Assembly (NCBI GenBank): GCA_017619335.1
Contig: JAFZSP010000078.1
Location: forward strand, 26-64,025
Length of the DNA: 64,000 bases
Direction: 5' to 3'
Origin: Bacteroidaceae bacterium
GTDB lineage: Bacteria; Bacteroidota; Bacteroidia; Bacteroidales; Bacteroidaceae
This document shows, piece by piece, positions 2,474-15,069 of this stretch. The stretch's first letter is position 1; each line of letters starts with the position of its first letter. A program made the position numbers and the translations under genes. The notes below the pieces were generated by a model that was given only the letters and a program-made list of their open reading frames with translations, searched no databases and was not told the origin of the DNA.

Positions 2474-3904
2474 TTACTCGCCCTGCGACTGCTGGAACCC
2501 ATTGACGAGACCCTGCACATATTGCAGCAACTGGCGCACGACGATGATGCTCTGCTGCATCGGCTCGGCGGCGTGGTCAATGATGTTGATGCCGTACTGC
2601 ACAGATTCTGGATCGAGCAAGTCAACAAGCGAGACGTAGCCGTTCTCGTCGGCGAAATTGAAGGCGGGCATCGTCCACCAGTCAACACCGAACTTCTGTG
2701 TGACGAGCTTCATAGGGATGGTCTGATTCACACCCTTGCAGGTCATCTCAGCCTTGATGAGCTGGTTCAACTGCTGGGTGTACTGGTCGATGGTTGCCTC
2801 GTCGGCATAGCGGCGGCGTGCGGAAGCGGAAGCACGTGCCAGTTCCAGTGCCTTTGTCATGTCGCTGATGCTGAGCGTGGTTGTCAGGTCGTCGAGCAGC
2901 GTGAGCTTGGCCTCGTCCAGAGTGCGCGTGGTCATCCAGGCTGTCAGAACGTCGAGGATGGACGACATCGAAGTGAACTTCGACAGGTCGAGGTTGGCCA
3001 GTCCGCCCTCGGCATCCCTGCTCTGCTTCATGGTCAGGTCAACCCTTTTGAGCCCGTTCTGGCTCCAACTGAATGCATATTCGCCCGTATGGTTCACACG
3101 GTCGTTGGCGATAGAGAAGCTGAGCGAGGATTCATCGTGTGTTAATGCCATCTTATTTAAATGGCTATTGACTGTTCCGCTGACGCTAAAGTTGCTGCGG
3201 CCTAACTGGGCATATTCTGAGCCTGCGAGAGGCGTAGCTTGATTCATAAAGGAACCCGTGAATGAATTTTCCCACGAACCAGTGGATTTGTTGGCGATAG
3301 CGAACTGGAATTCAGAGGGGAAGAGGAAGACGATGGCGAGGCCCGGCTGCTGAGTAGAGGCATGTAGGAATTTGATGCTCGTGTCGCCACCGGCCTTCAG
3401 GGTCAGTCTAAGGTTATGGGGTATAAACTGTTGGGTGATGGGGTTGAATCCTTTGACAATGACCTCAAATTCTTCGGCCTCCTCCACGTCGAAGCCTGTT
3501 TCTTCAGCATTCATCGTGAAGCGGTAGTTGAAATCGGTGAAGTCCACCGTGCCGTACATCTTGTAACCCATCGCAGCCAGTTCGCTGCCCTCCTCTACGG
3601 GCTTGATGCTCTGTTTCACCTTCTGCATGAAGGCGTTGAGCACGGCCTTCTCAAACTCAGGGTTGTTGAGCACGCTCTGATTGAAATTCAGGTTCAGGTT
3701 GTTGGCCGCATTCCATGACGTGAAGTTCAGGTTCTCCGCCAGGTCCTTCATCGTGGCGCGGGTATGCTCCACGAACTCCTTGCGGTTCTTCTTGGCCTGC
3801 TCCTGGGCGGGGTTGTCATCGTTGTCCGACGAGCACGATGTCAATACACTTGCGCCGTTTATGGTGAGGATGGCGGCGAGCACCCAATTGAAAAGCTTTT
3901 TCAT
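2474..3904 (-). CDS. Putative surface-exposed lipoprotein, paralog 2 (unknown function)
   Basis: 476-aa ORF with lipobox VLTSC followed by SSDNDDNP. The last 111 residues differ from paralog 1 at only 3 positions, while the core is strongly diverged. Confidence 0.75.
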   Translation of the reverse strand: MKKLFNWVLAAILTINGASVLTSCSSDNDDNPAQEQAKKNRKEFVEHTRATMKDLAENLNFTSWNAANNLNLNFNQSVLNNPEFEKAVLNAFMQKVKQSIKPVEEGSELAAMGYKMYGTVDFTDFNYRFTMNAEETGFDVEEAEEFEVIVKGFNPITQQFIPHNLRLTLKAGGDTSIKFLHASTQQPGLAIVFLFPSEFQFAIANKSTGSWENSFTGSFMNQATPLAGSEYAQLGRSNFSVSGTVNSHLNKMALTHDESSLSFSIANDRVNHTGEYAFSWSQNGLKRVDLTMKQSRDAEGGLANLDLSKFTSMSSILDVLTAWMTTRTLDEAKLTLLDDLTTTLSISDMTKALELARASASARRRYADEATIDQYTQQLNQLIKAEMTCKGVNQTIPMKLVTQKFGVDWWTMPAFNFADENGYVSLVDLLDPESVQYGINIIDHAAEPMQQSIIVVRQLLQYVQGLVNGFQQSQGE

Positions 3905-3921
3905 AATTGCTTTCCTTTTTT

Positions 3922-4560
3922 TTATCCAATATACTGCATGATGATGTCAGCCATTTCCTCCTCGGTCTTGCCATCGGCAGAGATGACGAGCTGGTAGTTG
4001 CGGGTGTCATAGCGCGAGGTGCCGGTGTACTTCTTCACGTAGTTCTCGCGCATTTTGTCCACGCGTTCGATGGTCTTGCGGGCCTCGTCCTCGGTCATGT
4101 TCTGCTTGCGGGCCACGCGTTCCACGCGGTAGTCCATCGAGGCCTGAATGAGAATGCTCAGGTGGTTGGGATGGTCGCGGAACACGTGGAAACCGCTGCG
4201 ACCGGCCACGACGCACGACTTCTCCTCGGCAATGCTTTTCAGAATCTCAGTTTCAGTTTTGAACATCTCGTCGGTGGTCAGCAGGTCGGGTTCGTCGCCC
4301 TTCTGCGGCAGGTAGTAGTTCATACCTATGCCTGAGTCTATCTTCAGTATGCGCTCCACGTCAGCCCACCAACTGTGCTTGCGGCCCTTCAGCCGTTCAA
4401 TCTCTGCGGTGGTGAGGTTATACTTCTCCTGCAGGGCCTTGATGACGGCCTTGTCGTAGAAAGGCACGCCTAACTTCTCTGACAACAGGCGGCCAACGGT
4501 ACGTCCGCCGCTTCCTAATTCACGGTTAATCGTGATTACAAATTTCTTGTCCAGGTTCAT
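3922..4560 (-). CDS. Cytidylate kinase-like family protein
   Basis: Start placed at MNLDKKFVITINRELGSGGRTVG (P-loop-like GSGGR). The length (~212 aa) and sequence style match the cytidylate-kinase-like (AAA_18/Cytidylate_kin2) family. The longer ORF-track start at 4629 runs into the promoter repeat. Confidence 0.6.
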   Translation of the reverse strand: MNLDKKFVITINRELGSGGRTVGRLLSEKLGVPFYDKAVIKALQEKYNLTTAEIERLKGRKHSWWADVERILKIDSGIGMNYYLPQKGDEPDLLTTDEMFKTETEILKSIAEEKSCVVAGRSGFHVFRDHPNHLSILIQASMDYRVERVARKQNMTEDEARKTIERVDKMRENYVKKYTGTSRYDTRNYQLVISADGKTEEEMADIIMQYIG

Positions 4561-4667
4561 ACTATTATTTATGTTAAATGAGTGAACGCGTAATGGCTTT
4601 GTTGTATTTATCTTCAAAATACGGCGCAAATATCGTAAAAAGGATTAAATGAGAAAAGGTTTTTCTG
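4514..4667. repeat. Direct repeat copy 1 (promoter region + 5' end of cytidylate-kinase-like gene)
   Basis: 4535..4667 is identical to 13015..13147 (133 bp, offset 8480). Imperfect similarity extends to 4514 and beyond 4667. Confidence 0.9.
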
Positions 4668-4710
4668 GAAAAAATGCAGGCAAAGGGTGCAAAAAGGTGA
4701 TTTTTACTGA

Positions 4711-5841
4711 TTATAATGTGATGACGTAAGGATTCGGCTTGCCTGTCAGACCGAACTGGCGGTCTGGTTGATCGGCCTCCAAGCTGTAGCGCCGCAACTC
4801 CATCATGTCGTAGTGGCCGTTGCCATTGGTGTCGGTGAAAGTAATGACTGAGGCGCGTCCCAGTTTCAGATAGCCGGCATTGGCGTAGGTGAAGTTAAGC
4901 GGACAACGCACCACACCGGTGATGCTGTCGCCCTGAATATCGATGCTGTCGCCTGCGGTCAGCAGATAGCTATACTGGTCAAGGCTGTCACCATGTTCCT
5001 CCAGCGTGTGATTATGTCCCCAGAGCACCAGCACGTCGTGGGTCTGAGCAGCGGCGGTCAGAGCCTTGTACCATGTCATGGCTCCAACATTGTCGCCACG
5101 GGTGGCGTGCAGGGGCACGTGGCTCATCACCACGATAGGGTCGCTGTCGGCAATTGCGGTCACCCACTGGGTAAAGCTGCGTGCAGCCGACTCTGCCGAG
5201 ATGCCATAGCGGTCGGCCTGATCGATACCGTTGTAGCCCATCTGCTTCGGTGCTCCGCCTCCAGGGGGAGGCGGTGGTGCGAGGCTGTCGCCCTGTTCAG
5301 GCTGTGGTGGACGGATGCTGTCGTTCTGCTCTTCTGGATGTTCCTGATAGTAACGGATGGCTGCGGTGGTAGCCGAATCGGTGTCGTACACCATCTGTAC
5401 GTAGCTGATGCCGTAGGTGTAGTAGCCGTCGCTGCGACGTGGTCCGCTGTAGAAGGCATCGTAGCCCTCGGCGCAGTTGTTGTCGTGCGAGCCGTATGTC
5501 ATCATCACCCGGGTGTTGAGCGGATTAACTATCGCATATACCTCATCGTAAATGTCTCTGATGGAGAATCCCGGGGTCATATCGCTCATGCCGCCCACGT
5601 AGTCGCCACCTAGCAACACGGTCTGCGGACGGATGCCTCTGCCAGCCACGGCCCGCGCCAGCATCGCCGTCAGGTTATTGCCTTTGCCCGTCTCGTGGCG
5701 GTCGGTTGCCACGAAGAGCGTTGTGCTGTAGCCCGCGCTGCCGCCACTCGGATTATCTGTATTGTCCGTACAGGAGGTCATCCACGACATGCCGCAGAAA
5801 GTCAGGATGGCGGCAAGCATCCAATTAAAAATCTTTCTCAT
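4711..5841 (-). CDS. Calcineurin-like metallophosphoesterase lipoprotein
   Basis: Lipobox MTSC followed by TDNTDNP. Metallophosphoesterase motifs are read by eye: DRH, GGDYVGG, GSHDN and WGHNH. There is a Pro/Gly-rich insert (APPPPPGGGAP). Confidence 0.7.
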   Translation of the reverse strand: MRKIFNWMLAAILTFCGMSWMTSCTDNTDNPSGGSAGYSTTLFVATDRHETGKGNNLTAMLARAVAGRGIRPQTVLLGGDYVGGMSDMTPGFSIRDIYDEVYAIVNPLNTRVMMTYGSHDNNCAEGYDAFYSGPRRSDGYYTYGISYVQMVYDTDSATTAAIRYYQEHPEEQNDSIRPPQPEQGDSLAPPPPPGGGAPKQMGYNGIDQADRYGISAESAARSFTQWVTAIADSDPIVVMSHVPLHATRGDNVGAMTWYKALTAAAQTHDVLVLWGHNHTLEEHGDSLDQYSYLLTAGDSIDIQGDSITGVVRCPLNFTYANAGYLKLGRASVITFTDTNGNGHYDMMELRRYSLEADQPDRQFGLTGKPNPYVITL

Positions 5842-5865
5842 AGTCTGTTATTTATATGATCAGTT

Positions 5866-6459
5866 TCACTCGGAAGCCTCGCTTGGGGGAAACACTTGAT
5901 TGATGAGTTTTTCAAACTCCTTGTAGGCGAAGGTGTCGCGGAGTTCACTGAGCGCATCGGCCAGTCCCCGGTAGTGCCACTCGTGGTCTTTGGGGTCTTT
6001 GGCGTGGAAGAGGTTCCACAGGGCATCGCCCTGCTGGGCATAGTCGCGGGCGATGGCACGCATATTCGAGAGCTTGTCTCCGAGAGCAACTATCTTGGCG
6101 TCGTGGGAAGCACGGGTCAGACGATCAATGGCAGCCTGCTTGCGGGCGTGCCAACTGTCCTCGGCGGTTAAACCGTCAAGCACGATGTCGCTCTCCGAGG
6201 CCACGAGCGAGGCGATGCGGTTGCCGAATTCTTCACGTATCTGCTCCACTGTCGTATCTGTGTCCTCCACGGTGTCGTGCAGGGCTGCGGCGGCCAGCAG
6301 TTCCTGGTCGCGGGTCATCGTGGCCACGATTTCCACAGCTTCCATCGGATGGACGATATAGGGAAAACCCTTGCCTCGGCGCTCTGTCCCGGCATGGGCG
6401 CGAACCGCAAAGATGATGGCGCGGTCCAACAGTGTGGTGTCTAAGGGTCGGTTTGCCAT
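5866..6459 (-). CDS. HD-domain (p)ppGpp-hydrolase-like protein (small alarmone hydrolase, Mesh1/SpoT-hydrolase type)
   Basis: 197 aa. AHAGTERRGKGFPYIVHPMEAVEIV ... AALHDTVEDT matches the RelA/SpoT hydrolase HD signature. No synthetase or regulatory domains are present. Confidence 0.8.
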   Translation of the reverse strand: MANRPLDTTLLDRAIIFAVRAHAGTERRGKGFPYIVHPMEAVEIVATMTRDQELLAAAALHDTVEDTDTTVEQIREEFGNRIASLVASESDIVLDGLTAEDSWHARKQAAIDRLTRASHDAKIVALGDKLSNMRAIARDYAQQGDALWNLFHAKDPKDHEWHYRGLADALSELRDTFAYKEFEKLINQVFPPSEASE

Positions 6460-6460
6460 T

Positions 6461-7339
6461 CTATTCCAAATATTTCTCCTTCAACTGTTGTTGCTCTTTC
6501 TTCGAGAAACCCAACTGATTCTCTATGTACCCTGACAATGAGCCATACTTCTGGTCAATCAGGTAGAGCGCTGCCTCGAAGTTCTCGCGGCTCACGCCGA
6601 CCATAGCACGAATAAAGGCAATGGCCTCCTCTGAACCGTCTTTTCCTTGGACTTTGGCTGTCAATGCTTCCACCTGACGGGCGTAACTCTGGTTGGAGAG
6701 GTCGAAGTCCTCAACGATGGTCTCACGGCTGGCACCGAGGGCTGCCAGGAGGAAGGTCGATGCCCATCCGGCACGGTCCTTGCCCTGTGAACAGTGCCAG
6801 AGCACACCGCCCTTGGCATTCAACACACCACGAAGGAACTCGCCGTAATACTGCTGCGCCGTAGAGTCGGTTACGATAGCTGGATAGAGTTGTCGGGCCA
6901 TAGTCTGCGCCTTGGGGTCGAAGGCATACTTCATCAGCACGGCCAGCATGTCCCGCGTGTCCATATTGGTTGTGTCTGCTCGGCTGGAGGAGAATCCCTG
7001 AATGAATGCCTGAGGCAAAGTTGAGAGGTGGGTGTAGCTCACCCCGTCAATGATACGGTCGGGGGCTGCATTGGCCTCGGCCTCGAAACGGAAGTCGAAC
7101 ACGTCAGTCAGATGATACTTCTCCTTCAGTAGAGCCACGTCGCTGTCGGTAGCCTTCGAGAGGTTTCCGCTGCGGACAAGCATTCCCGTGCGTATCACCT
7201 TTCCATCCTTCATGACGAGACTGCCCATGTCGCGTGCATTCTCAATCTCTTCATAGGCGATGGCACGTTGCGAATTTGCTACTTGTGCAGAGAATAACAT
7301 CATGACTATCAATAGAATAAAGGATTGCTTTGTCGTCAT
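6461..7339 (-). CDS. Secreted protein-tyrosine/dual-specificity phosphatase family protein (CX5R)
   Basis: N-terminal signal peptide. Active-site loop HCSQGKDRAG (C-X5-R). A 4-bp overlap with the upstream gene and a 1-nt gap to the downstream gene indicate an operon. Confidence 0.75.
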   Translation of the reverse strand: MTTKQSFILLIVMMLFSAQVANSQRAIAYEEIENARDMGSLVMKDGKVIRTGMLVRSGNLSKATDSDVALLKEKYHLTDVFDFRFEAEANAAPDRIIDGVSYTHLSTLPQAFIQGFSSSRADTTNMDTRDMLAVLMKYAFDPKAQTMARQLYPAIVTDSTAQQYYGEFLRGVLNAKGGVLWHCSQGKDRAGWASTFLLAALGASRETIVEDFDLSNQSYARQVEALTAKVQGKDGSEEAIAFIRAMVGVSRENFEAALYLIDQKYGSLSGYIENQLGFSKKEQQQLKEKYLE

Positions 7340-8181
7340 CTTGGTAAGGCATTGTCTAATCGTTGAATAATAAACTCACTCATGGGCCGCTTGCCATCAG
7401 TGAGTTTGCTCACAAAGAAGGTCATCTTGAGAAAGACGAAAGGCTGCAGTTTTTGCACCTCTGCATCCAGCGCTTCTTGAGAGTCGGTGCCATAATAGGC
7501 CTTAGCAAAAGCTGCCCAGTGGGCTCTCAGCGTCGCATTGTCCAGATGGAAGATGTTGTCGGCACGTTCTGCACTCAAGAAGTTTGCCGAATAGTACATC
7601 ATGCCCAAGTCCCATTCGGGCACGCCGTAAGCAAAGTCGCCTACGTCTATCCAAAGGTCGCGCTGTCCGTCGGTGATGATATTGCCGATGTGCAGGTCGC
7701 CATGCAGACAGGTGGGCGTAGAGGGAACGGTGTTCATAAAACGATTGATGCGCGCCCTGAGTTCGTCAGTAAGATTAGAAATCTTATCAATCCATTGCAT
7801 CACAAGCTCTTTCATATCTGGCAGTCGTGTCGTATCAGCAGGAGTTTGGTGTATCTGCTTGGCCAGCACGGCGAAACGCTCAGACAGCGGCACCAACTTG
7901 TCGGGCTCCTGCGAGATGATGCGGGTGAACGAGCGTTTGTGCTGAATCAGTTCATACTCGGCGCCGAAACGCTCGCCGTCGGTAACCAGACGGATGGGCT
8001 TCGGTGTGGGCAGTCCGCTCTCGTAGACTATCTGGCTGATGCGGAACTCGCGAATAGCATTGTCGGCAGTCACGCTGGGCATGAAGAGTTTGGCCAGCGT
8101 CTTGCCGTCCTTGTGGTTATAGGAAAGGGCTGTTCCGCCCTCGCCAGTCTGGATATAATCATCCAAATTAATGCTTTCCAT
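7336..8181 (-). CDS. Aminoglycoside-phosphotransferase-like (APH/choline-kinase fold) kinase
   Basis: Brenner-type catalytic motif LHGDLHIGN followed by the DVGDF (DxG) motif. 281 aa. Confidence 0.7.
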   Translation of the reverse strand: MESINLDDYIQTGEGGTALSYNHKDGKTLAKLFMPSVTADNAIREFRISQIVYESGLPTPKPIRLVTDGERFGAEYELIQHKRSFTRIISQEPDKLVPLSERFAVLAKQIHQTPADTTRLPDMKELVMQWIDKISNLTDELRARINRFMNTVPSTPTCLHGDLHIGNIITDGQRDLWIDVGDFAYGVPEWDLGMMYYSANFLSAERADNIFHLDNATLRAHWAAFAKAYYGTDSQEALDAEVQKLQPFVFLKMTFFVSKLTDGKRPMSEFIIQRLDNALPR

Positions 8182-8207
8182 ACTATTATTATGAAAATAG
8201 GGGTTCT

Positions 8208-9278
8208 TTATCTTTTTTTCTGCATAAACGGCAGCGTCTTAGCCTGCTCCATCATCATATCTGCCACGATACCGTTGGCATCACTTTCTCCATTAATGAG
8301 GTCGTAGAGCGACTTCAGGCCATCGCGTCCTCCGTCGTGCTTCAGCACATAGACCAGGCAGAGATACTGGAGAGCTGTGTTTGAAGAGAGGATGTCAAGG
8401 TCGGTGATGGCCAGTTGAGAAAGTGCCAACTGATAGGCATCTTCGCTGTTCTCGTCGATGAAGTGCTGCACCTGTCCGAGCGTCTCCATCCCGAATGACT
8501 CCAAAACCGGCAGATAAGACATCACCGATACAGGCCATATCTCGGCCTGATTGACGGCAGCGATACGCTTATTCAAACGGTCAAAGGGGTGCAGGTCAAG
8601 ATAGTTGCGGAACGAGTCACGCGAGAGTGGAACATCGTCAAGCTTGCCGCTCTTTACCAGTGCCAGTGTCTGGCGGCGGTAGTCGGTGAGAACTGTACGC
8701 AGGCGGCTGAACTCATCGTCCATCAGTTCCATCATGCCAGCCAGACGGTTGAACTGCCGCAGATAGACGTCAGGAATCTTCACATCGCCCTTGTAACCCG
8801 TGTCGTGTTCAATCGTGGACCACACATGCTGCAGAGCTGTACGCATCTGCAGTTCGAAGCGTGGACCACCGGTTTTTAGTCGGCAGATATAGTGCAGGGA
8901 GTTGTAGCCGAAGGAGTCCAGCTTGTGCAGTTTACGCTTATCGACGCTCTCTTGCCAGTCGATGTCGAAGATTCGTTTGGCGATGGCCGCCACCTTATCG
9001 ACCTCGTCGGTATAGAAAGTGATGACGCGCAAGCCCACGAGGTCGGTGATATCATCTATACTCTTGTATTTCGCACCCTTCAGCTCCAGTTTTCCCGTGA
9101 GCGACTTCTCGGTCTTCACCCGATGCTCCATGGCCGTGATATAGATACCCTGTTCGAGCAGAGCATGGCGCAGTTGGCTGCTGGCGTCATCAGCCAACTG
9201 CTGTAGCGTAGGGAGCAGTTCGCGGTACTGCCTTAGCAGCATCTCGCCGTGCGCATCCAATCTAACTTGATTATCCAT
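8208..9278 (-). CDS. RelA/SpoT-domain small alarmone synthetase with long C-terminal extension
   Basis: Synthetase motifs DLVGLRVITFY, GYNSLHYICRL and ELQMRTALQHVWSTIEHDTGYK lie in the first ~180 aa. The remaining ~170 aa has no motif I recognise. Confidence 0.8.
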   Translation of the reverse strand: MDNQVRLDAHGEMLLRQYRELLPTLQQLADDASSQLRHALLEQGIYITAMEHRVKTEKSLTGKLELKGAKYKSIDDITDLVGLRVITFYTDEVDKVAAIAKRIFDIDWQESVDKRKLHKLDSFGYNSLHYICRLKTGGPRFELQMRTALQHVWSTIEHDTGYKGDVKIPDVYLRQFNRLAGMMELMDDEFSRLRTVLTDYRRQTLALVKSGKLDDVPLSRDSFRNYLDLHPFDRLNKRIAAVNQAEIWPVSVMSYLPVLESFGMETLGQVQHFIDENSEDAYQLALSQLAITDLDILSSNTALQYLCLVYVLKHDGGRDGLKSLYDLINGESDANGIVADMMMEQAKTLPFMQKKR

Positions 9279-9282
9279 CTAC

Positions 9283-9591
9283 TTACATAAACTCAAAGAT
9301 GTTGCTGAAACCTGTGATGGTAAAGATACCACGGACGGTATCGTTGATACCCTTGATATAGACATGTCCGCCTTTGGCCTGGGCGTTCTGCAGGATGCCA
9401 AGGAATATGCGCAGACCGGCTGAAGAGATATATGCCAGGTCTGTGCAATCGATGATAATGTCTTTACCCTCCACGTCGTTCAGTGGACTCATTGCCTTTT
9501 CAGTGTCTGCGGCAGCTGCGGTGTCGAGACTGCCCTCCAGAATGGCAACCATGTTGCCGTCGATTTCTTGAATCGTTGTTTTCATACTCAA
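9283..9591 (-). CDS. STAS-domain anti-sigma-factor antagonist (SpoIIAA/RsbV-like)
   Basis: 102 aa. The conserved phosphorylation-site context is DLAYISSAGLRIF. Confidence 0.85.
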   Translation of the reverse strand: MSMKTTIQEIDGNMVAILEGSLDTAAAADTEKAMSPLNDVEGKDIIIDCTDLAYISSAGLRIFLGILQNAQAKGGHVYIKGINDTVRGIFTITGFSNIFEFM

Positions 9592-9612
9592 TAATGAATG
9601 ATGAATTGTGAA

Positions 9613-11982
9613 TTATGAATTAAGGATTATTTTCTTCCTCAGTGTCAGCACATTGAGGTTGTCCATGCGCTCGTAGTTGATGGAGTCCATATTCTGTCGC
9701 ATGATGTGGATGCCCAAACCGCCGATGTTGCGCTGATTGGCAGAAAGCGTAGTATCGACTTCTGCCTGAACGGTGGGGTCGAAGGGTTTACCGCTGTCGA
9801 TAATGGTAAACTTCAGTCGCACATCATTCGAGGCTGCCTCTATGGTCACGTCACCATGCTGTCCAGGCGGGTAGGCGTATTTCATCACGTTGACCACAGC
9901 TTCCTCCACAGCCACTTTAACCTGCATGGTGACCAACTCTTCAAATCCCACGGTTTGGCAGACCTCTTCGACAAAGTCGTTCAGCCGTGGCACCTCTTGC
10001 AGGTCACAGGACAACACAAGGCTCTTGCGCATCCTGACATCACTCTGCTGCTTGATATACTGTATAGCCATCATGGTCAAATCATCGCTCTGTTCGGCAT
10101 CACCTACAAACTGATGGACGGCCTCGGTCATCCGTGCGATGAGTTGACGGGGCTCCTGTTGTTGCTGGGAGAGTGCCTGAGTAGCCACATCGTTGACGCG
10201 CTCCATCTGGAACAGTGCAGATTCGGCGTCCATAGCCTCGGTCAGTCCGTCTGTGAAGAGGAAGATGGTGGTGCCTGTGAAGATATGCGCCTCCTGCAAG
10301 GAATACTTCCACGTGGGCATAAAGCCAACGGGGATATTTGAATCGCAGGGCAGTTCGCCTACGCCTGCTCCGACGAGCAGCGGGGCATCGTGGCCGGCAT
10401 TGCAGTAGCGCAAACGTCCAGTTGGCAGGTCGAGCACACCGACAAAGAGAGTAACGAACATGTGGTTCTTGTTCATGTCGGCTATCGTCTTGTTCATGAT
10501 GGTCACAATACGGTCTGGCATCGACTCGTGGGCCGACACGGTTCGGAATGTTGAGCGGGTCACAGCCATGAAGAGCGAAGCGGGCACGCCCTTGCCCGAG
10601 ACGTCACCGATGCAGAAAAAGAGTTTCTCATCGCGGAAATAGAAGTCGAACAGGTCGCCGCCCACCTCCTTGGCTGGGGTCAGCGAGGCAAAGAGCTGCA
10701 CGTCGTCGCGGTCGTCCCGTGTTGGGAACTTTTCAGGCAGCATGCCCATCTGTATGGCGCTGGCAATGCGGAGGTCGCGTTCTATTGAAGCCTTCTGGGA
10801 GGTGGTGTTCTTCAGTTCTTCGATGTATTTTACCAGTGACTGCTGCATGTTCCCGAACGAGTGGCTTAACTGACCTATCTCATCGACACGCTGGAAGTCT
10901 GGCAACGGAGCGTCGAACTTTCCTGAGGCGATGGCCTCAGCCTCCTTAGCCAGTCGATGCAGAGGTTTCAACTCACGGGTGATGATGCGGATGAACAGGT
11001 AGAGCATCAGCAGCAGACCCACGGTGACGATGGTCATAATTGTGCGACGCAGACGGTCAAAGCCGCTGAAGATGTCGCTCTCTGGACAGACGATGGCCAT
11101 CGAGCAGCCTGTCTGGCCGAGGGGCTTGTAGAACACATAGCTGTCCTTGCTACCGATGTTCATGTGTTTCATGCCCTCCTCTCCATGCTGCATGGCATAG
11201 CCCAAAGCGGTCAGGGCCGTGTCGGGCTGCTCCAGCGTATGTGTGAAGATGGTCTGTCGGGTGATTTTCGTCGTGTCGGGATGTACGAAATAGGTGCCAC
11301 CACGACCTATCATGATGCTGTAGGAATTGGGATAGGGCTTCACGGCTGAGATCGTCTGCGAAAGCCAGTTCAGTGAGAGACTGATGTTAATGACACCTAT
11401 CAGCTGGCCCTGATTGTCCGTAAGGGTCTGACAGTAGCTGGTCACCATCTCGCTGGTGTTCGTTGCCACGTCAAGGTCCATATACGGTTCCGTCCAGCAT
11501 GGTTTTTCCAGTAGCTGGGGCATTAGATACCAGTCTGCAAAGAAATACTGGTAGCTATCGCTGCCGCCCTGTATGGTACGGATTGAGTCACCATCGTGTT
11601 TGGTATAGGCAGAGAAGTAGCGGCCCTTGTCCTTGAAGTAGTAAGGCTCAAAAGCGATGGAACAGTTGTAGAAGTCGGGATTATTCAGCAGCAAGCCCCG
11701 GCTATAGACGAACATGGAGTCGGCCTGTTCGGAATGTCGCAGCACGAGCCATTTGGTCATGTTCGAGGCAACCTCCACACGGTTCAGGATGCCCTCCACA
11801 CGCAGGGAGGTCTTGTCCAGAATTTGCGTGGCACGGCTGACAGCCTCCTGACGCACAGCCTCACGAGCCTGATAGAAAAGGAAGCCGAGGGCGACATTGA
11901 AGATGATGGCTGCAAAGAACACCACCCACAGGCTGACCCTGACGGATAGTTTATGACGGAAATATGCGATGATCTTTTTCAT
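9613..11982 (-). CDS. Membrane sensor: periplasmic Cache-like domain + HAMP + PP2C/SpoIIE phosphatase fused to RsbW/SpoIIAB-like HATPase kinase domain
   Basis: 789 aa with two TM segments flanking a ~270-aa extracytoplasmic region. PP2C motifs GGDLFDF, IGDVSGKG, LFTDGLTEA and DDLTMMAI. The C-terminal ~130 aa (VKVAVEEAVVNVMKYAY ... GGLGIHIMRQ) resembles an anti-sigma kinase. Confidence 0.8.
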   Translation of the reverse strand: MKKIIAYFRHKLSVRVSLWVVFFAAIIFNVALGFLFYQAREAVRQEAVSRATQILDKTSLRVEGILNRVEVASNMTKWLVLRHSEQADSMFVYSRGLLLNNPDFYNCSIAFEPYYFKDKGRYFSAYTKHDGDSIRTIQGGSDSYQYFFADWYLMPQLLEKPCWTEPYMDLDVATNTSEMVTSYCQTLTDNQGQLIGVINISLSLNWLSQTISAVKPYPNSYSIMIGRGGTYFVHPDTTKITRQTIFTHTLEQPDTALTALGYAMQHGEEGMKHMNIGSKDSYVFYKPLGQTGCSMAIVCPESDIFSGFDRLRRTIMTIVTVGLLLMLYLFIRIITRELKPLHRLAKEAEAIASGKFDAPLPDFQRVDEIGQLSHSFGNMQQSLVKYIEELKNTTSQKASIERDLRIASAIQMGMLPEKFPTRDDRDDVQLFASLTPAKEVGGDLFDFYFRDEKLFFCIGDVSGKGVPASLFMAVTRSTFRTVSAHESMPDRIVTIMNKTIADMNKNHMFVTLFVGVLDLPTGRLRYCNAGHDAPLLVGAGVGELPCDSNIPVGFMPTWKYSLQEAHIFTGTTIFLFTDGLTEAMDAESALFQMERVNDVATQALSQQQQEPRQLIARMTEAVHQFVGDAEQSDDLTMMAIQYIKQQSDVRMRKSLVLSCDLQEVPRLNDFVEEVCQTVGFEELVTMQVKVAVEEAVVNVMKYAYPPGQHGDVTIEAASNDVRLKFTIIDSGKPFDPTVQAEVDTTLSANQRNIGGLGIHIMRQNMDSINYERMDNLNVLTLRKKIILNS

Positions 11983-12015
11983 TTGATATTACGATATTAC
12001 GTTATAACTATAACG

Positions 12016-12966
12016 TCAATTCGACAACTCCTCATAGGTTATCTCGCGGCTCAGCATCTGGTTCTCCACCATCAGTCGGCTGGCCTGCCGTACCATATCG
12101 GGACGCAGCCGGAACTCTCGTTTCTTAGATTCACGGTCCACCTGCAGACGCAGCACCTCCTTGAGCATCAGCCGCTGCATCACACGGTTGGTGGCAATGT
12201 GGTTCTTATCGACATACTGCATCACGATGTCCAATGTCTCGTCGGGATGTTGGGCTGCCCACTCCCAGCCCTTGCGGCTGGCCTGAGCAAAACGGCGAGC
12301 CTGCTCCTTATGTTGGACATAATAGTCGCGGGTCATATATACACCATCCTCCTGCACATTGTAGCCGTGGTCGCAGAAGCGATAGACGTTCTTGTCGGTC
12401 ATCTGGATGCCCGCCTGCACCAACTGGTAGTACTCGTTGTAGCTCATGGCCAGCGTGGCGTCGAGGGCTCCGGCCACGAACAGGTTGACATTCTGGGCGA
12501 AGCGAATCCACTCATAGTCCAAATGGTCTTTGATGCTCATGCAGATGGCAAGCTGTCCAAAGCCCACGCTCCAGATACCCACCTTGGCTCCCTTTTGCAT
12601 CAGCGGGTCTTTTCCACGTGCCGAGACGATAACCATCGCATTGTTCATCGATGTCTGCAGGATGTTCACCAACGGTATGCCGCCATCCACAATCTCCAGT
12701 GCCTGACAGAGTTGGAGCGTCGTGGCCTGGCACTGGTTTTGGCTGAGTCGGCTTATGGCAGGCTGCGTGGCAGACGGGTGCTCGATGCGCACCTTCACCC
12801 CCGCCTCACGGTAAAAACCCTTCGCCTCGGCCACGTAGTAGCCCGCGAACTGGGCCTGCGCCGTCCACTGCGGCGTGAATACGATGGTCTCATCCTGCGC
12901 AGACAAAGTATGAGACGTCGCCACCATTGCAATGAATAAGAATAGGTAAACTTTGTGTTTCTTCAT
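12016..12966 (-). CDS. Periplasmic substrate-binding protein, NMT1/THI5-like (ABC-type SBP fold)
   Basis: Start placed at MKKHKVYLFLFIAMV (signal peptide). The size and sequence style fit the nitrate/sulfonate/bicarbonate-type SBP family. No permease or ATPase gene is adjacent. Confidence 0.6.
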   Translation of the reverse strand: MKKHKVYLFLFIAMVATSHTLSAQDETIVFTPQWTAQAQFAGYYVAEAKGFYREAGVKVRIEHPSATQPAISRLSQNQCQATTLQLCQALEIVDGGIPLVNILQTSMNNAMVIVSARGKDPLMQKGAKVGIWSVGFGQLAICMSIKDHLDYEWIRFAQNVNLFVAGALDATLAMSYNEYYQLVQAGIQMTDKNVYRFCDHGYNVQEDGVYMTRDYYVQHKEQARRFAQASRKGWEWAAQHPDETLDIVMQYVDKNHIATNRVMQRLMLKEVLRLQVDRESKKREFRLRPDMVRQASRLMVENQMLSREITYEELSN

Positions 12967-13040
12967 CTGTTCTTGTTGCAACGGCCTCCACTGCCTAATT
13001 CATGATTGATGGTAATTACAAATTTCTTGTCCAGGTTCAT
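12963..13040 (-). pseudogene. Duplicated 5' fragment of the cytidylate-kinase-like gene (25-codon leader ORF)
   Basis: My translation is MNLDKKFVITINHELGSGGRCNKNR*. The first 20 aa match the start of the gene at 4560, differing only at residue 13 (H versus R). Its TGA overlaps the ATG of the SBP gene (ATGA at 12963-12966). Confidence 0.8.
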
Positions 13041-13147
13041 ACTATTATTTATGTTAAATGAGTGAACGCGTAATGGCTTTGTTGTATTTATCTTCAAAAT
13101 ACGGCGCAAATATCGTAAAAAGGATTAAATGAGAAAAGGTTTTTCTG
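12994..13147. repeat. Direct repeat copy 2
   Basis: 13015..13147 is identical to 4535..4667. Confidence 0.9.
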
Positions 13148-13251
13148 TAAAAAATGAAAAGGAAGGGAGGAAAAGGGGGATTTTTAGGGAGAAAAGAGGG
13201 TTTTTCGGCAAAAAAGTGACGAAAGATTATCATACTTTATTGATTATTCTC

Positions 13252-13282: not shown

Positions 13283-14550
13283 ATGAGAACACGTGAAGAA
13301 ATGGAAGCCAAAGGGTTGACGCCCGAGGAGACCAAGCACAGTGGACATCGCCGTGCGCGCTGGCATGACTATGCGCTGCCTGGGGTATATATGCTGACAT
13401 TGATTACCGATGGTCGTCAGCGTGTCTTTGGCGAGGTGGTGGGGCGTTCCCACGCTGCAAGGGGCACGGCGGACTATCCTCACCTGCAACCCTCGACGTT
13501 TGGGCAGAAAGTGCTGGAAGAGGAGGTGAAGAAGATTTCGAAGTACTATCCGATGGTGGAAGTATGGAAGGTGGTGCTGATGCCCGACCACATCCACCTG
13601 CTTGTCTGTGTCCGGGAGCCTCTGCCTGAGGGGAAGCACCTGGGGCTTGTGGTGAGCGGCTTCAAGGCGGGATGCTCGCAGGCGTGGTGGCGGTGGCAGG
13701 ACGAGCAGCGGGCAGGCCTCGGAAACGGAGGCGGAGGAAACGCCCTCGGGAGAACCCTCGGGAACGGTAACGGGGAGGGAAGAACCCTCGGGAACGGTAA
13801 TGGGAAGGGGAGAACCCTCGCGAACGGTCATGGGGAGGGGAGGACCCACGGGTACAGGGACGCAGGGAATCTCCCAAACGTGGTCACAGCTCCGGAAAGC
13901 GCCCCCCACCCTGTTCCAGTGCCCGAGGGTTCTCCCGAGGGTGAAAAAGAGCGCCGCCCGGTCCTGTTTGAACCCGGTTACCACGACCGCATCGTCCGAG
14001 ATGCAGAGATGCTCGGGAACATTCGCCGTTACATGGACGAGAACCCCTTTCGCGCCAAACTCCGCTCCGAAATCCCCCACCTGATGCAACGACGCCTGCA
14101 TCTCTGGATTCATGACCGCGAATATGCGGCCTTTGGGAACCTCTTCCTCCTGAAGAATCCCGAGCGGATCCAGGTCTTCTTTCATCGTAAGAACAAAGCT
14201 GGCATCCCCACGCACCTCACCCCGAATACGCCACGGATCGGGATCTCCTACTCAGACGCGCCGAAGAAGGAGCGGTGCTCGTAACGCCCGGCGTCTCCAA
14301 GGGTGAACTGGGTGTAGTCAAAGGTGCCCTGTCGCTCCATCTGCCACTCATCCTCCTTCAGAAAGAGCCCATCTCCGAATACTGGAAACCCGCCCAAAGC
14401 CGCTTCTACGCCTGTGCCGCCGGCCATCTTCTCATCCTCTCCCCTTGGCAGTTGGACGGTGATTCTGATTATGCCCGCTTCCATAACCTCAATGACCTGG
14501 CTCGCGACATCTGCCGCGCCACAGACACCCGACTATTAGGAATGCAGTAG
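13283..14550 (+). pseudogene. HUH/Y1 (IS200-like / REP-associated tyrosine transposase-like) gene with C-terminal extension, interrupted by a frameshift near 14206-14230
   Basis: HUH motif PDHIHLLV, Tyr motif GYHDRIV and YMDENP. The reading frame ends at 14284. A second frame is open from 14191 and continues naturally (EYATDRDLLLRRAEEGAVLVTPGVSKGE...) to 14550. C4 runs at 14206-14209 and 14220-14223 are candidate slip sites. Confidence 0.65.
13751..13850 (+). repeat. In-frame 30-bp tandem repeat (about 3.3 copies) inside the transposase-like gene
   Basis: The unit agaaccctcgggaacggtaacggggaggga encodes RTLGNGNGEG-type decapeptides. It lies between the HUH and Tyr motifs. Confidence 0.85.
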
Positions 14551-14920: not shown

Positions 14921-14964
14921 TGTTGGCGATAAAACCAAAAGCAGGACTCCAGTCAGGAGGTTAA

Positions 14965-15069
14965 GCTCAAGTCGGAATGAGGAGGAGCGCAAGTCGAGAT
15001 GAGGAGGAGCGCAAGTCGGGATGAGGAGGAGCGCAAGTCGGGATGAGGAGGAGCGCAAGTCGGGATGAG
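14965..15069. repeat. 22-bp tandem repeat, about 4.8 copies (GCGCAAGTCGGGATGAGGAGGA)
   Basis: Units at 14965, 14987, 15009 and 15031, with a partial unit at 15053. The central copies are identical. Confidence 0.9.

Follow-up and report, generated by a model that had tools for sequence, protein, structure and literature searches.

How does the start of one gene come to stand at both ends of an operon? The question is raised by a 64,000-nt stretch of contig JAFZSP010000078.1 from a Bacteroidaceae bacterium (assembly GCA_017619335.1, positions 26 to 64,025; the window hereafter), in which an operon of eight genes lies between two copies of a 133-nt direct repeat. Copy 1, at the far end of the operon, contains the upstream region and first codons of an intact cytidylate-kinase-like (CK) gene; copy 2 precedes the first operon gene, which encodes a periplasmic binding protein (SBP). 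All genes of the operon and of the repeat region are on the minus strand, and gene families were assigned from Pfam profile matches. Our preferred reading, to which we give a probability of roughly 0.6, is that copy 2 is the truncated 5' stub and upstream region of a CK-like gene that formerly led the operon, and that the identical core of the repeat is the product of recent gene conversion.

The repeat and its two copies

The perfect repeat occupies positions 4535-4667 (copy 1) and 13015-13147 (copy 2), both on the minus strand, at an offset of 8480 and with no mismatches. This 133-nt sequence occurs exactly twice in the window, in direct orientation, and shuffled sequences yielded no matches. 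It forms the core of a longer homology: 4501-4706 and 12981-13186 align without gaps over 206 nt at 91% identity (19 mismatches), and the homologous segment probably reaches 4710 and 13190, for a length of roughly 210 nt. All 19 mismatches fall within the flanks, and a perfect run of 133 nt was obtained in none of 200,000 permutations. In copy 2, the core begins 108 nt 5' of an ATG and runs through codon 8 to the first base of codon 9; in copy 1, it holds the corresponding upstream and initial coding sequence of the intact CK gene (3922-4560, minus strand; 212 amino acids; Cytidylate_kin2, E 1.6e-46). Copy 1 as a whole takes up the entire 150-nt spacer between the stop codon of a metallophosphoesterase gene (4711-4713) and the CK ATG (4560), together with codons 1-20. 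On the other side of the operon, the repeat spans 150 of the 242 nt between the ATG of copy 2 and a divergent neighbouring gene.

The coding flank of the repeat comprises codons 9-20, at 12981-13014 in copy 2 (ITINHELGSGGR; the homology ends at 12981) and, in alignment with it, at 4501-4534 in the CK gene of copy 1 (ITINRELGSGGR), both on the minus strand. These segments are in frame and identical at 27 of 36 nt, with 11 of 12 amino acids conserved: eight of the nine differing sites are synonymous third positions and the remaining one gives R13H. Were the substitutions random, eight or more of nine would fall at third positions with a probability of about 0.001. Third positions thus differ in 8 of 12 codons (67%). 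The corresponding difference between the CK gene of the window and its orthologues is 25-39%, and between it and a second group of CK paralogues 50-53%; the value of 8/12 is higher than among orthologues (P = 0.02 for a rate of 0.34) and fits that between the CK paralogue groups. The upstream flank (13148-13190 in copy 2 and 4668-4710 in copy 1, minus strand, the end of the latter adjoining the metallophosphoesterase stop codon) is about 72-74% identical between the copies, with 29 of 39 nt matching (10 mismatches in 39 nt, or 12 in 43). This flank (10/39) is less diverged than the coding flank (Fisher p = 0.015), so the mosaic must consist of at least two layers, and the parts of the repeat differ in age.

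A tract that is identical at 133/133 positions and lies within diverged homologous flanks on both sides has the pattern of gene conversion. The simplest reading of the mosaic is an old homology overlaid by at least one recombination patch, the latest of which would be a gene-conversion tract of at least 133 bp.

Copy 2 retains its ATG (13040), and its homology to the CK gene stops abruptly after codon 20 (CGT, 12981). Five unrelated codons and a TGA (12965-12963) follow, giving a 25-codon open reading frame (ORF), MNLDKKFVITINHELGSGGRCNKNR, at 12963-13040 on the minus strand. With the ATG of the next gene (12966-12964), this TGA forms an ATGA overlap at 12966-12963; the gene (12016-12966, minus strand), the first of the operon, encodes an NMT1/THI5-like SBP with a signal peptide. 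Its start at 12966 is taken to be real because the MKK... N-terminus of the signal peptide is conserved in homologues. With 20 codons homologous to Cytidylate_kin2 genes, an abrupt end and an early stop, the ORF has the makeup of a gene remnant. Because the divergence in codons 9-20 is nearly all synonymous, copy 2 would derive from a separately evolving, once-functional CK-like gene; neutral decay of the stub is excluded as the source of this pattern, since the differences arose under selection in both coding sequences.

These results bear on several claims of the initial annotation. The 133-bp identical repeat at offset 8480, with weaker similarity on both sides, is borne out by the alignment and the shuffles, and so are the retained ATG and the 25-codon ORF that overlaps the first operon gene as ATGA. 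The statement that copy 2 decays after its first codons does not hold: what is found is mostly synonymous divergence followed by a sharp breakpoint.

Directly after this breakpoint, the window reads TGC AAC AAG AAC AG (12967-12980) before the ATG of the SBP gene, and in one related locus (L013, at about 10030-10085) ATG AAC AAT AAC TAA precedes the SBP start by 12 nt. The two sequences are similar to the canonical CK start ATG AAC AAG AAC, and may represent either a shorter CK vestige of greater age or no more than an A-rich context for initiation.

The protein start that is encoded in the core is unusual for a CK gene. Among the 120 closest homologues listed, MNLDKK is found only in the two entries from the same species; most of the others start with MNKNE followed by Q or K, and LDK at residues 3-5 occurs in none of the 118. 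Outside these residues, the protein shares 84-92% identity with every listed homologue except one, and the N-terminal tail is somewhat variable across the family. The four nucleotide changes that underlie MNLDKK are all non-synonymous and all inside the perfect core. Since this unique N-terminus sits within the core, the core may have come to the distal CK gene from outside, by conversion from copy 2 into copy 1, a direction towards which we lean slightly. That copy 1 is the native one, as had been assumed, is for the same reason not established. CK orthologues at 89% identity occur in unrelated contexts (L006-L012), and their upstream regions bear no resemblance to the repeat, so the core is not a widely conserved regulatory element.

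The operon and its gene order in relatives

The eight genes between the repeat copies begin with the SBP gene. On the minus strand there follow genes for a dCache-HAMP-SpoIIE (PP2C)-HATPase_c_2 fusion protein (SpoIIE, 9613-11982), a STAS-domain protein (STAS, 9283-9591), a protein with a RelA_SpoT synthetase domain (RSD, 8208-9278), an APH-family phosphotransferase (APH, 7336-8181), a Y_phosphatase3 protein (YP3, 6461-7339), an HD_4 protein with an HD domain of the RelA/SpoT hydrolase type (HD4, 5866-6459) and, last before copy 1, the metallophosphoesterase lipoprotein (Metallophos, 4711-5841). From its genes, the operon appears to be a partner-switching module with a link to alarmone-type nucleotide metabolism; nothing specific on this type of cluster in Bacteroidetes came up in the literature searched.

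Relatives (L013-L060 and L094-L097) were collected by a genome scan with SBP alignment and by gene-context look-ups. By its homologues, the source of the window is an uncultured rumen Prevotella. The best GTDB representative has an SBP identity of only 87-88%, and the core genes share 80-92% protein identity with related rumen Prevotella. SBP-SpoIIE(-STAS) forms a conserved core across rumen Bacteroidales, with accessory genes upstream of it in some relatives and downstream in others. The order in the window is SBP-SpoIIE-STAS-RSD-APH-YP3-HD4-Metallophos-CK. Full-length CK-like genes lie 5' of the SBP gene in L026 (CK-SBP-SpoIIE-STAS-RSD-HD4), L016 (CK-HD4-SBP-SpoIIE-STAS-RSD), L022 (CK-APH-HD4-RSD-SBP-SpoIIE-STAS) and the closest relative sampled, L095 (SBP 92%; CK-PeptidaseM15-CK-APH fragment-SBP-SpoIIE-STAS-RSD). 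They come after the core genes in L013 (SBP-SpoIIE-STAS ... HD4-RSD-CK) and L094 (SBP-SpoIIE-STAS-RSD-ABC-M15-CK-APH). Because it is found in several relatives, a leading CK-like gene is regarded as a normal state in rumen Bacteroidales, and the stub of the window occupies the spot where that gene would be.

Further arrangements are APH-YP3-HD4-SBP-SpoIIE-STAS-RSD in L025, an exact rotation of the SBP-SpoIIE-STAS-RSD-APH-YP3-HD4 of the window; RSD-HD4-APH-SBP-SpoIIE-STAS in L050 and L053; and SBP-SpoIIE...STAS...RSD-HD4-APH in L032. L050 and L053 are distant Bacteroidales in which DTD-DeoC lies directly upstream of the cluster, as it does in the window, and the chromosomal position of the cluster is therefore old. 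A conserved and highly reshuffled signalling cluster of rumen Prevotella may merit a study of its own.

Comparable bracketing repeats were found in none of eight related loci searched, and in no relative does the repeat lie upstream of the SBP gene. The only repeat signal in L095 comes from its two CK paralogues, which are 71% identical. In the stretch 2542-3340, just upstream of the SBP gene, the same locus carries an internally deleted APH pseudogene (101 amino acids, with an N-terminus like that of the APH protein of the window); a repetitive, GC-rich spacer comes next, and then an exact TTTG / TAtcTTTG promoter. The predicted pseudogene is another decaying accessory gene at the head of an operon.

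Origin of the two copies

We propose that a full-length CK-like gene formerly headed the operon, as one still does in several related rumen Bacteroidales, and that a deletion from codon 21 to 14 nt before the SBP gene left the 25-codon ORF with its ATGA overlap. A second, intact CK-like gene with a homologous upstream region would have been present at the far end of the operon. The two 5' regions would have diverged for a long time, with the coding part of the present stub under protein-level selection for most of it, until a recent non-reciprocal homologous recombination left an identical tract of at least 133 bp in both copies. The operon and the distal CK gene would now share promoter-proximal sequence and an unstructured A/U-rich initiation region, which would favour parallel expression, and ribosomes that terminate on the stub ORF may reinitiate on the first operon gene. 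We infer the deletion, the conversion event, the promoter activity and the coupling from the sequence.

Gene conversion between dispersed homologues (concerted evolution) is familiar from duplicated tuf genes and rRNA operons. The repeat resembles these cases in that a perfect tract lies in older, diverged flanks on the same replicon, with extreme clustering of mismatches; it differs from them in that one partner is a 20-codon stub with a promoter region and that the tract consists of regulatory sequence and eight codons. As a further instance of gene remnants, gene conversion and operon reshuffling, all of them known processes, the repeat involves no new mechanism and is in itself a modest evolutionary curiosity. 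What the locus would illustrate is the remodelling of an operon without a mobile element: a leading gene is cut to a stub that still supplies an upstream region and a short overlapping ORF, and the homologous gene at the far end comes to share an identical control segment via gene conversion.

Several points weigh against this origin. An old paralogue is not expected to keep a non-coding flank that is 74% identical, and an additional, older exchange or duplication would have to be assumed. The coding flank of copy 2 matches all CK paralogue groups about equally (25-28 of 36 nt), and its 36 nt gave no signal by which the stub could be assigned to one of them. No full-length CK gene with an MNLDKK...H13 5' end was found in relatives or strains; a degenerate pattern coding for MNLDKKFVIT matched only one of the JGI metagenome contigs (L093), as a non-coding chance match; and a protein search with the 48-amino-acid, TTG-extended stub ORF returned no donor candidates. 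The putative shared promoter is likewise not a canonical one. The consensus in Bacteroidota is TTTG at -33 and TAnnTTTG at -7, with T-12, A-11, T-8, T-7, T-6 and G-5 near-invariant (PMC6847099); the coding strand between 3800 and 14400 contains no exact TAnnTTTG, and no TTTG is found at -33 relative to the best -7-like box.

One extension of the proposed history can be offered only tentatively, as a possibility with the odds against it. The locus would be a gene-order rotation caught in the act, in which the leading CK gene was relocated distally by duplication and reciprocal loss, the stub was kept as promoter, leader and coupling ORF, and recurrent conversion was selectively maintained, giving an identical control region and co-regulation.

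The strongest alternative, though an unlikely one, is a tandem duplication of a unit P-CK-[SBP...Metallophos], P being the promoter region, with reciprocal loss to P-CK'-[operon]-P-CK and later conversion that kept the core identical. It overlaps with the preferred reading and differs from it only in the source of the two copies. The homology starts at the base adjoining the Metallophos stop codon, where the junction of a tandem duplication is expected. Gene order is rotated among relatives (L025 versus the window, L050/L053 versus L032), with the CK gene in front in L026 and behind in L013. A rotated order and a vestige of the moved gene (the stub, 12981-13040) are together the mark of duplication and random loss, a model classically applied to animal mitochondrial genomes; as that model has it, the vestigial duplicate lies at the boundary where the moved gene would be. 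Unlike the classical case, the locus offers no complete tandem intermediate, and its copies are too unevenly diverged for one simple duplication: the core differs by 0%, the upstream flank by 26% and the synonymous sites by 67%, so the parts are not of one age. Both CK genes would also have had to stay functional long enough to saturate synonymous sites (8/12), and no relative was found to have its operon between two CK genes, nor to have duplicated units or a full tandem intermediate.

Somewhat less credible, and disfavoured by the data, is a recent segmental duplication, or 'promoter capture', in which about 210 bp with the CK promoter and 5' end was copied in front of the SBP gene and then decayed at its edges. 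The perfect 133-nt core would be explained, and it fits that copy 1 precedes an intact gene and that no relative has the repeat upstream of the SBP gene. However, neutral decay cannot confine all 19 mismatches to the flanks while sparing 133 nt (0/200,000 permutations), a dead stub cannot yield coding changes of which 8/9 are synonymous (P about 0.001), and the N-terminus encoded in the core is atypical for the CK family. Of the promoter capture suggested by the initial annotation, the double presence of the promoter region and 5' end stands; copy 2 itself was not recently copied from the CK 5' end seen today.

The same annotation had also suggested that the eight-gene block, as a mobile or horizontally acquired element, was inserted into the 5' end of the CK gene with the repeats as a long target-site duplication, and this we consider very improbable. 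As in genomic islands with att sites or target-site duplications, direct repeats flank a multi-gene block that recombination could delete. In addition, a divergent RAYT-like gene (13283-14284, plus strand; 333 amino acids) lies 96 nt past 13186, where the ungapped homology of copy 2 ends; its match to the model of REP-associated tyrosine transposases is weak (NF047646, E 1.2e-10, below the curated cut-off), and the protein has no Pfam or PDB match. Unlike in such islands, no integrase, transposase or other recombinase is found among the eight genes, which belong by Pfam to signalling and nucleotide-related families only; the GC content of the block equals that of its flanks, and the composition profile has no foreign signal. 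The block is ancestral at its position, with core genes 80-92% identical at the protein level to those of rumen Prevotella, CK-like genes as habitual members of the cluster and a DTD-DeoC neighbourhood shared with the distant L050 and L053. The repeats are gene-derived mosaics, with a perfect core and flanks about 25% different, unlike a uniform target duplication. An excised form is absent from the five CK-carrying contigs, and structural breaks within the species lie near 9750 and at 6460, not at the repeats. The tempting picture of an island with a long target duplication is corrected by these observations.

These breaks belong to the one structural variant, at strain level, that was seen within the species. 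L002 carries HD_4-Metallophos-CK joined at window position 6460 to unrelated housekeeping genes (DUF4468, HU, TsaD, EPSP synthase...). Between about 9750 and 18306, L099 matches the window without a difference; over the end of SpoIIE and STAS it diverges by about 22%. A direct repeat with 133 identical bases is in principle long enough for RecA-type recombination to delete or amplify the 8.48-kb unit, and to that extent the expectation that the block could be lost by recombination holds; after a deletion between the repeats, the CK gene would remain intact behind a hybrid upstream region. The corresponding allele (RAYT-like gene, one repeat copy, CK gene) is absent from the five CK-carrying contigs and from contigs with HD_4 or RAYT-like proteins, about five to six contigs in total and hence of low power. 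An empty site, proposed earlier as a check in relatives, occurs in no related locus examined.

Both copies occur in at least four independent metagenome assemblies. In three ENA samples, single contigs run through both copies (L001, L003/L004 and L005) at 99.9-100% identity, and in a fourth sample (ERZ27256909) each copy is on its own contig (L099 and L002); two Logan unitigs overlap copy 2, one of which (L100) begins exactly at 13015, the edge of the repeat. The set includes MEGAHIT k141 contigs as well as METAG scaffolds that are named separately, and the repeat can be assembled through because 133 nt is shorter than k = 141. An assembly artefact (a collapsed or duplicated contig end), which the initial annotation had named as a possible refutation, has a negligible probability: all of the assemblies are metagenomic, but three samples span both copies, the fourth has each on its own contig, and L100 starts where a real repeat would make it start.

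Promoter, leader and neighbouring sequence

Any promoter for the operon or for the CK gene must lie in or right beside the repeat, which takes up all of the spacer before the CK gene and 150 of the 242 nt before the stub ATG. The best -7-like box, GATATTTG, matches five of the six near-invariant TAnnTTTG positions and lies 67 nt upstream of the ATG, at 13107-13114 in copy 2 and identically at 4627-4634 in copy 1 (minus strand). Exact boxes are present elsewhere: L095 has TAtcTTTG upstream of its SBP gene, and the variant contig L002 has its own TAatTTTG upstream of the HD_4 gene. Since the window has none, its promoter would be sub-consensus at best. A scan for sigma-70 promoters, uninformative for Bacteroidota, gave a count equal to the shuffle expectation. 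Use of the repeat by the operon as promoter and leader is plausible.

The leader is less structured than its shuffles (folding z = +2.28; 200 of 200 shuffles fold at least as well) and has no match in Rfam at E <= 1, on which grounds a riboswitch or attenuator leader was rejected. Its lack of structure fits the unstructured A-rich initiation regions described for Bacteroidota, in which initiation is not driven by Shine-Dalgarno sequences (PMC6847099).

The ATGA stop-start overlap is that of a coupled upstream ORF. The base at -3 is A for the stub ATG and C for the SBP ATG, which is compatible with a reliance of the SBP gene on termination-reinitiation at ATGA; transcription from the repeat and translational coupling are both putative. 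Coupling of this kind at ATGA is common in bacterial operons. As in other vestigial gene fragments that came to serve as coupled leader ORFs, the TGA of a short ORF overlaps the next ATG, and here the stub uses the initiation region of a real gene. The differences are that the coupling is read from the sequence, that no attenuator-type structure is predicted and that Bacteroidota are without Shine-Dalgarno-driven initiation.

No terminator-like site was found in the spacers of the scanned region, including that between Metallophos and CK, and the CK gene is for this reason probably also reached by read-through from the operon.

Other repeated sequence is present nearby. The RAYT-like gene contains four 30-nt tandem repeats (13718-13855) that encode a Gly/Asn-rich insert (GNGNGEGRTL...). 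In the spacer between this gene and DeoC, two overlapping 62-nt segments (14964-15025 and 15008-15069) are 95% identical at an offset of 44 nt, and both Logan unitigs end within this spacer, at 15027. Beyond the CK gene, two adjacent paralogous lipoprotein genes (972-2417 and 2474-3904, minus strand; 481 and 476 amino acids) share 85% DNA identity over 653 nt. A 42-nt segment, 86% identical between 3864-3905 and 5801-5842, is shared by the gene for the 476-amino-acid lipoprotein and the Metallophos gene and encodes their lipoprotein signal peptides (MKKLFNWVLAAILT and MRKIFNWMLAAILT). The lipoprotein paralogues and the shared signal-peptide segment may be read as further signs of local duplication or exchange.

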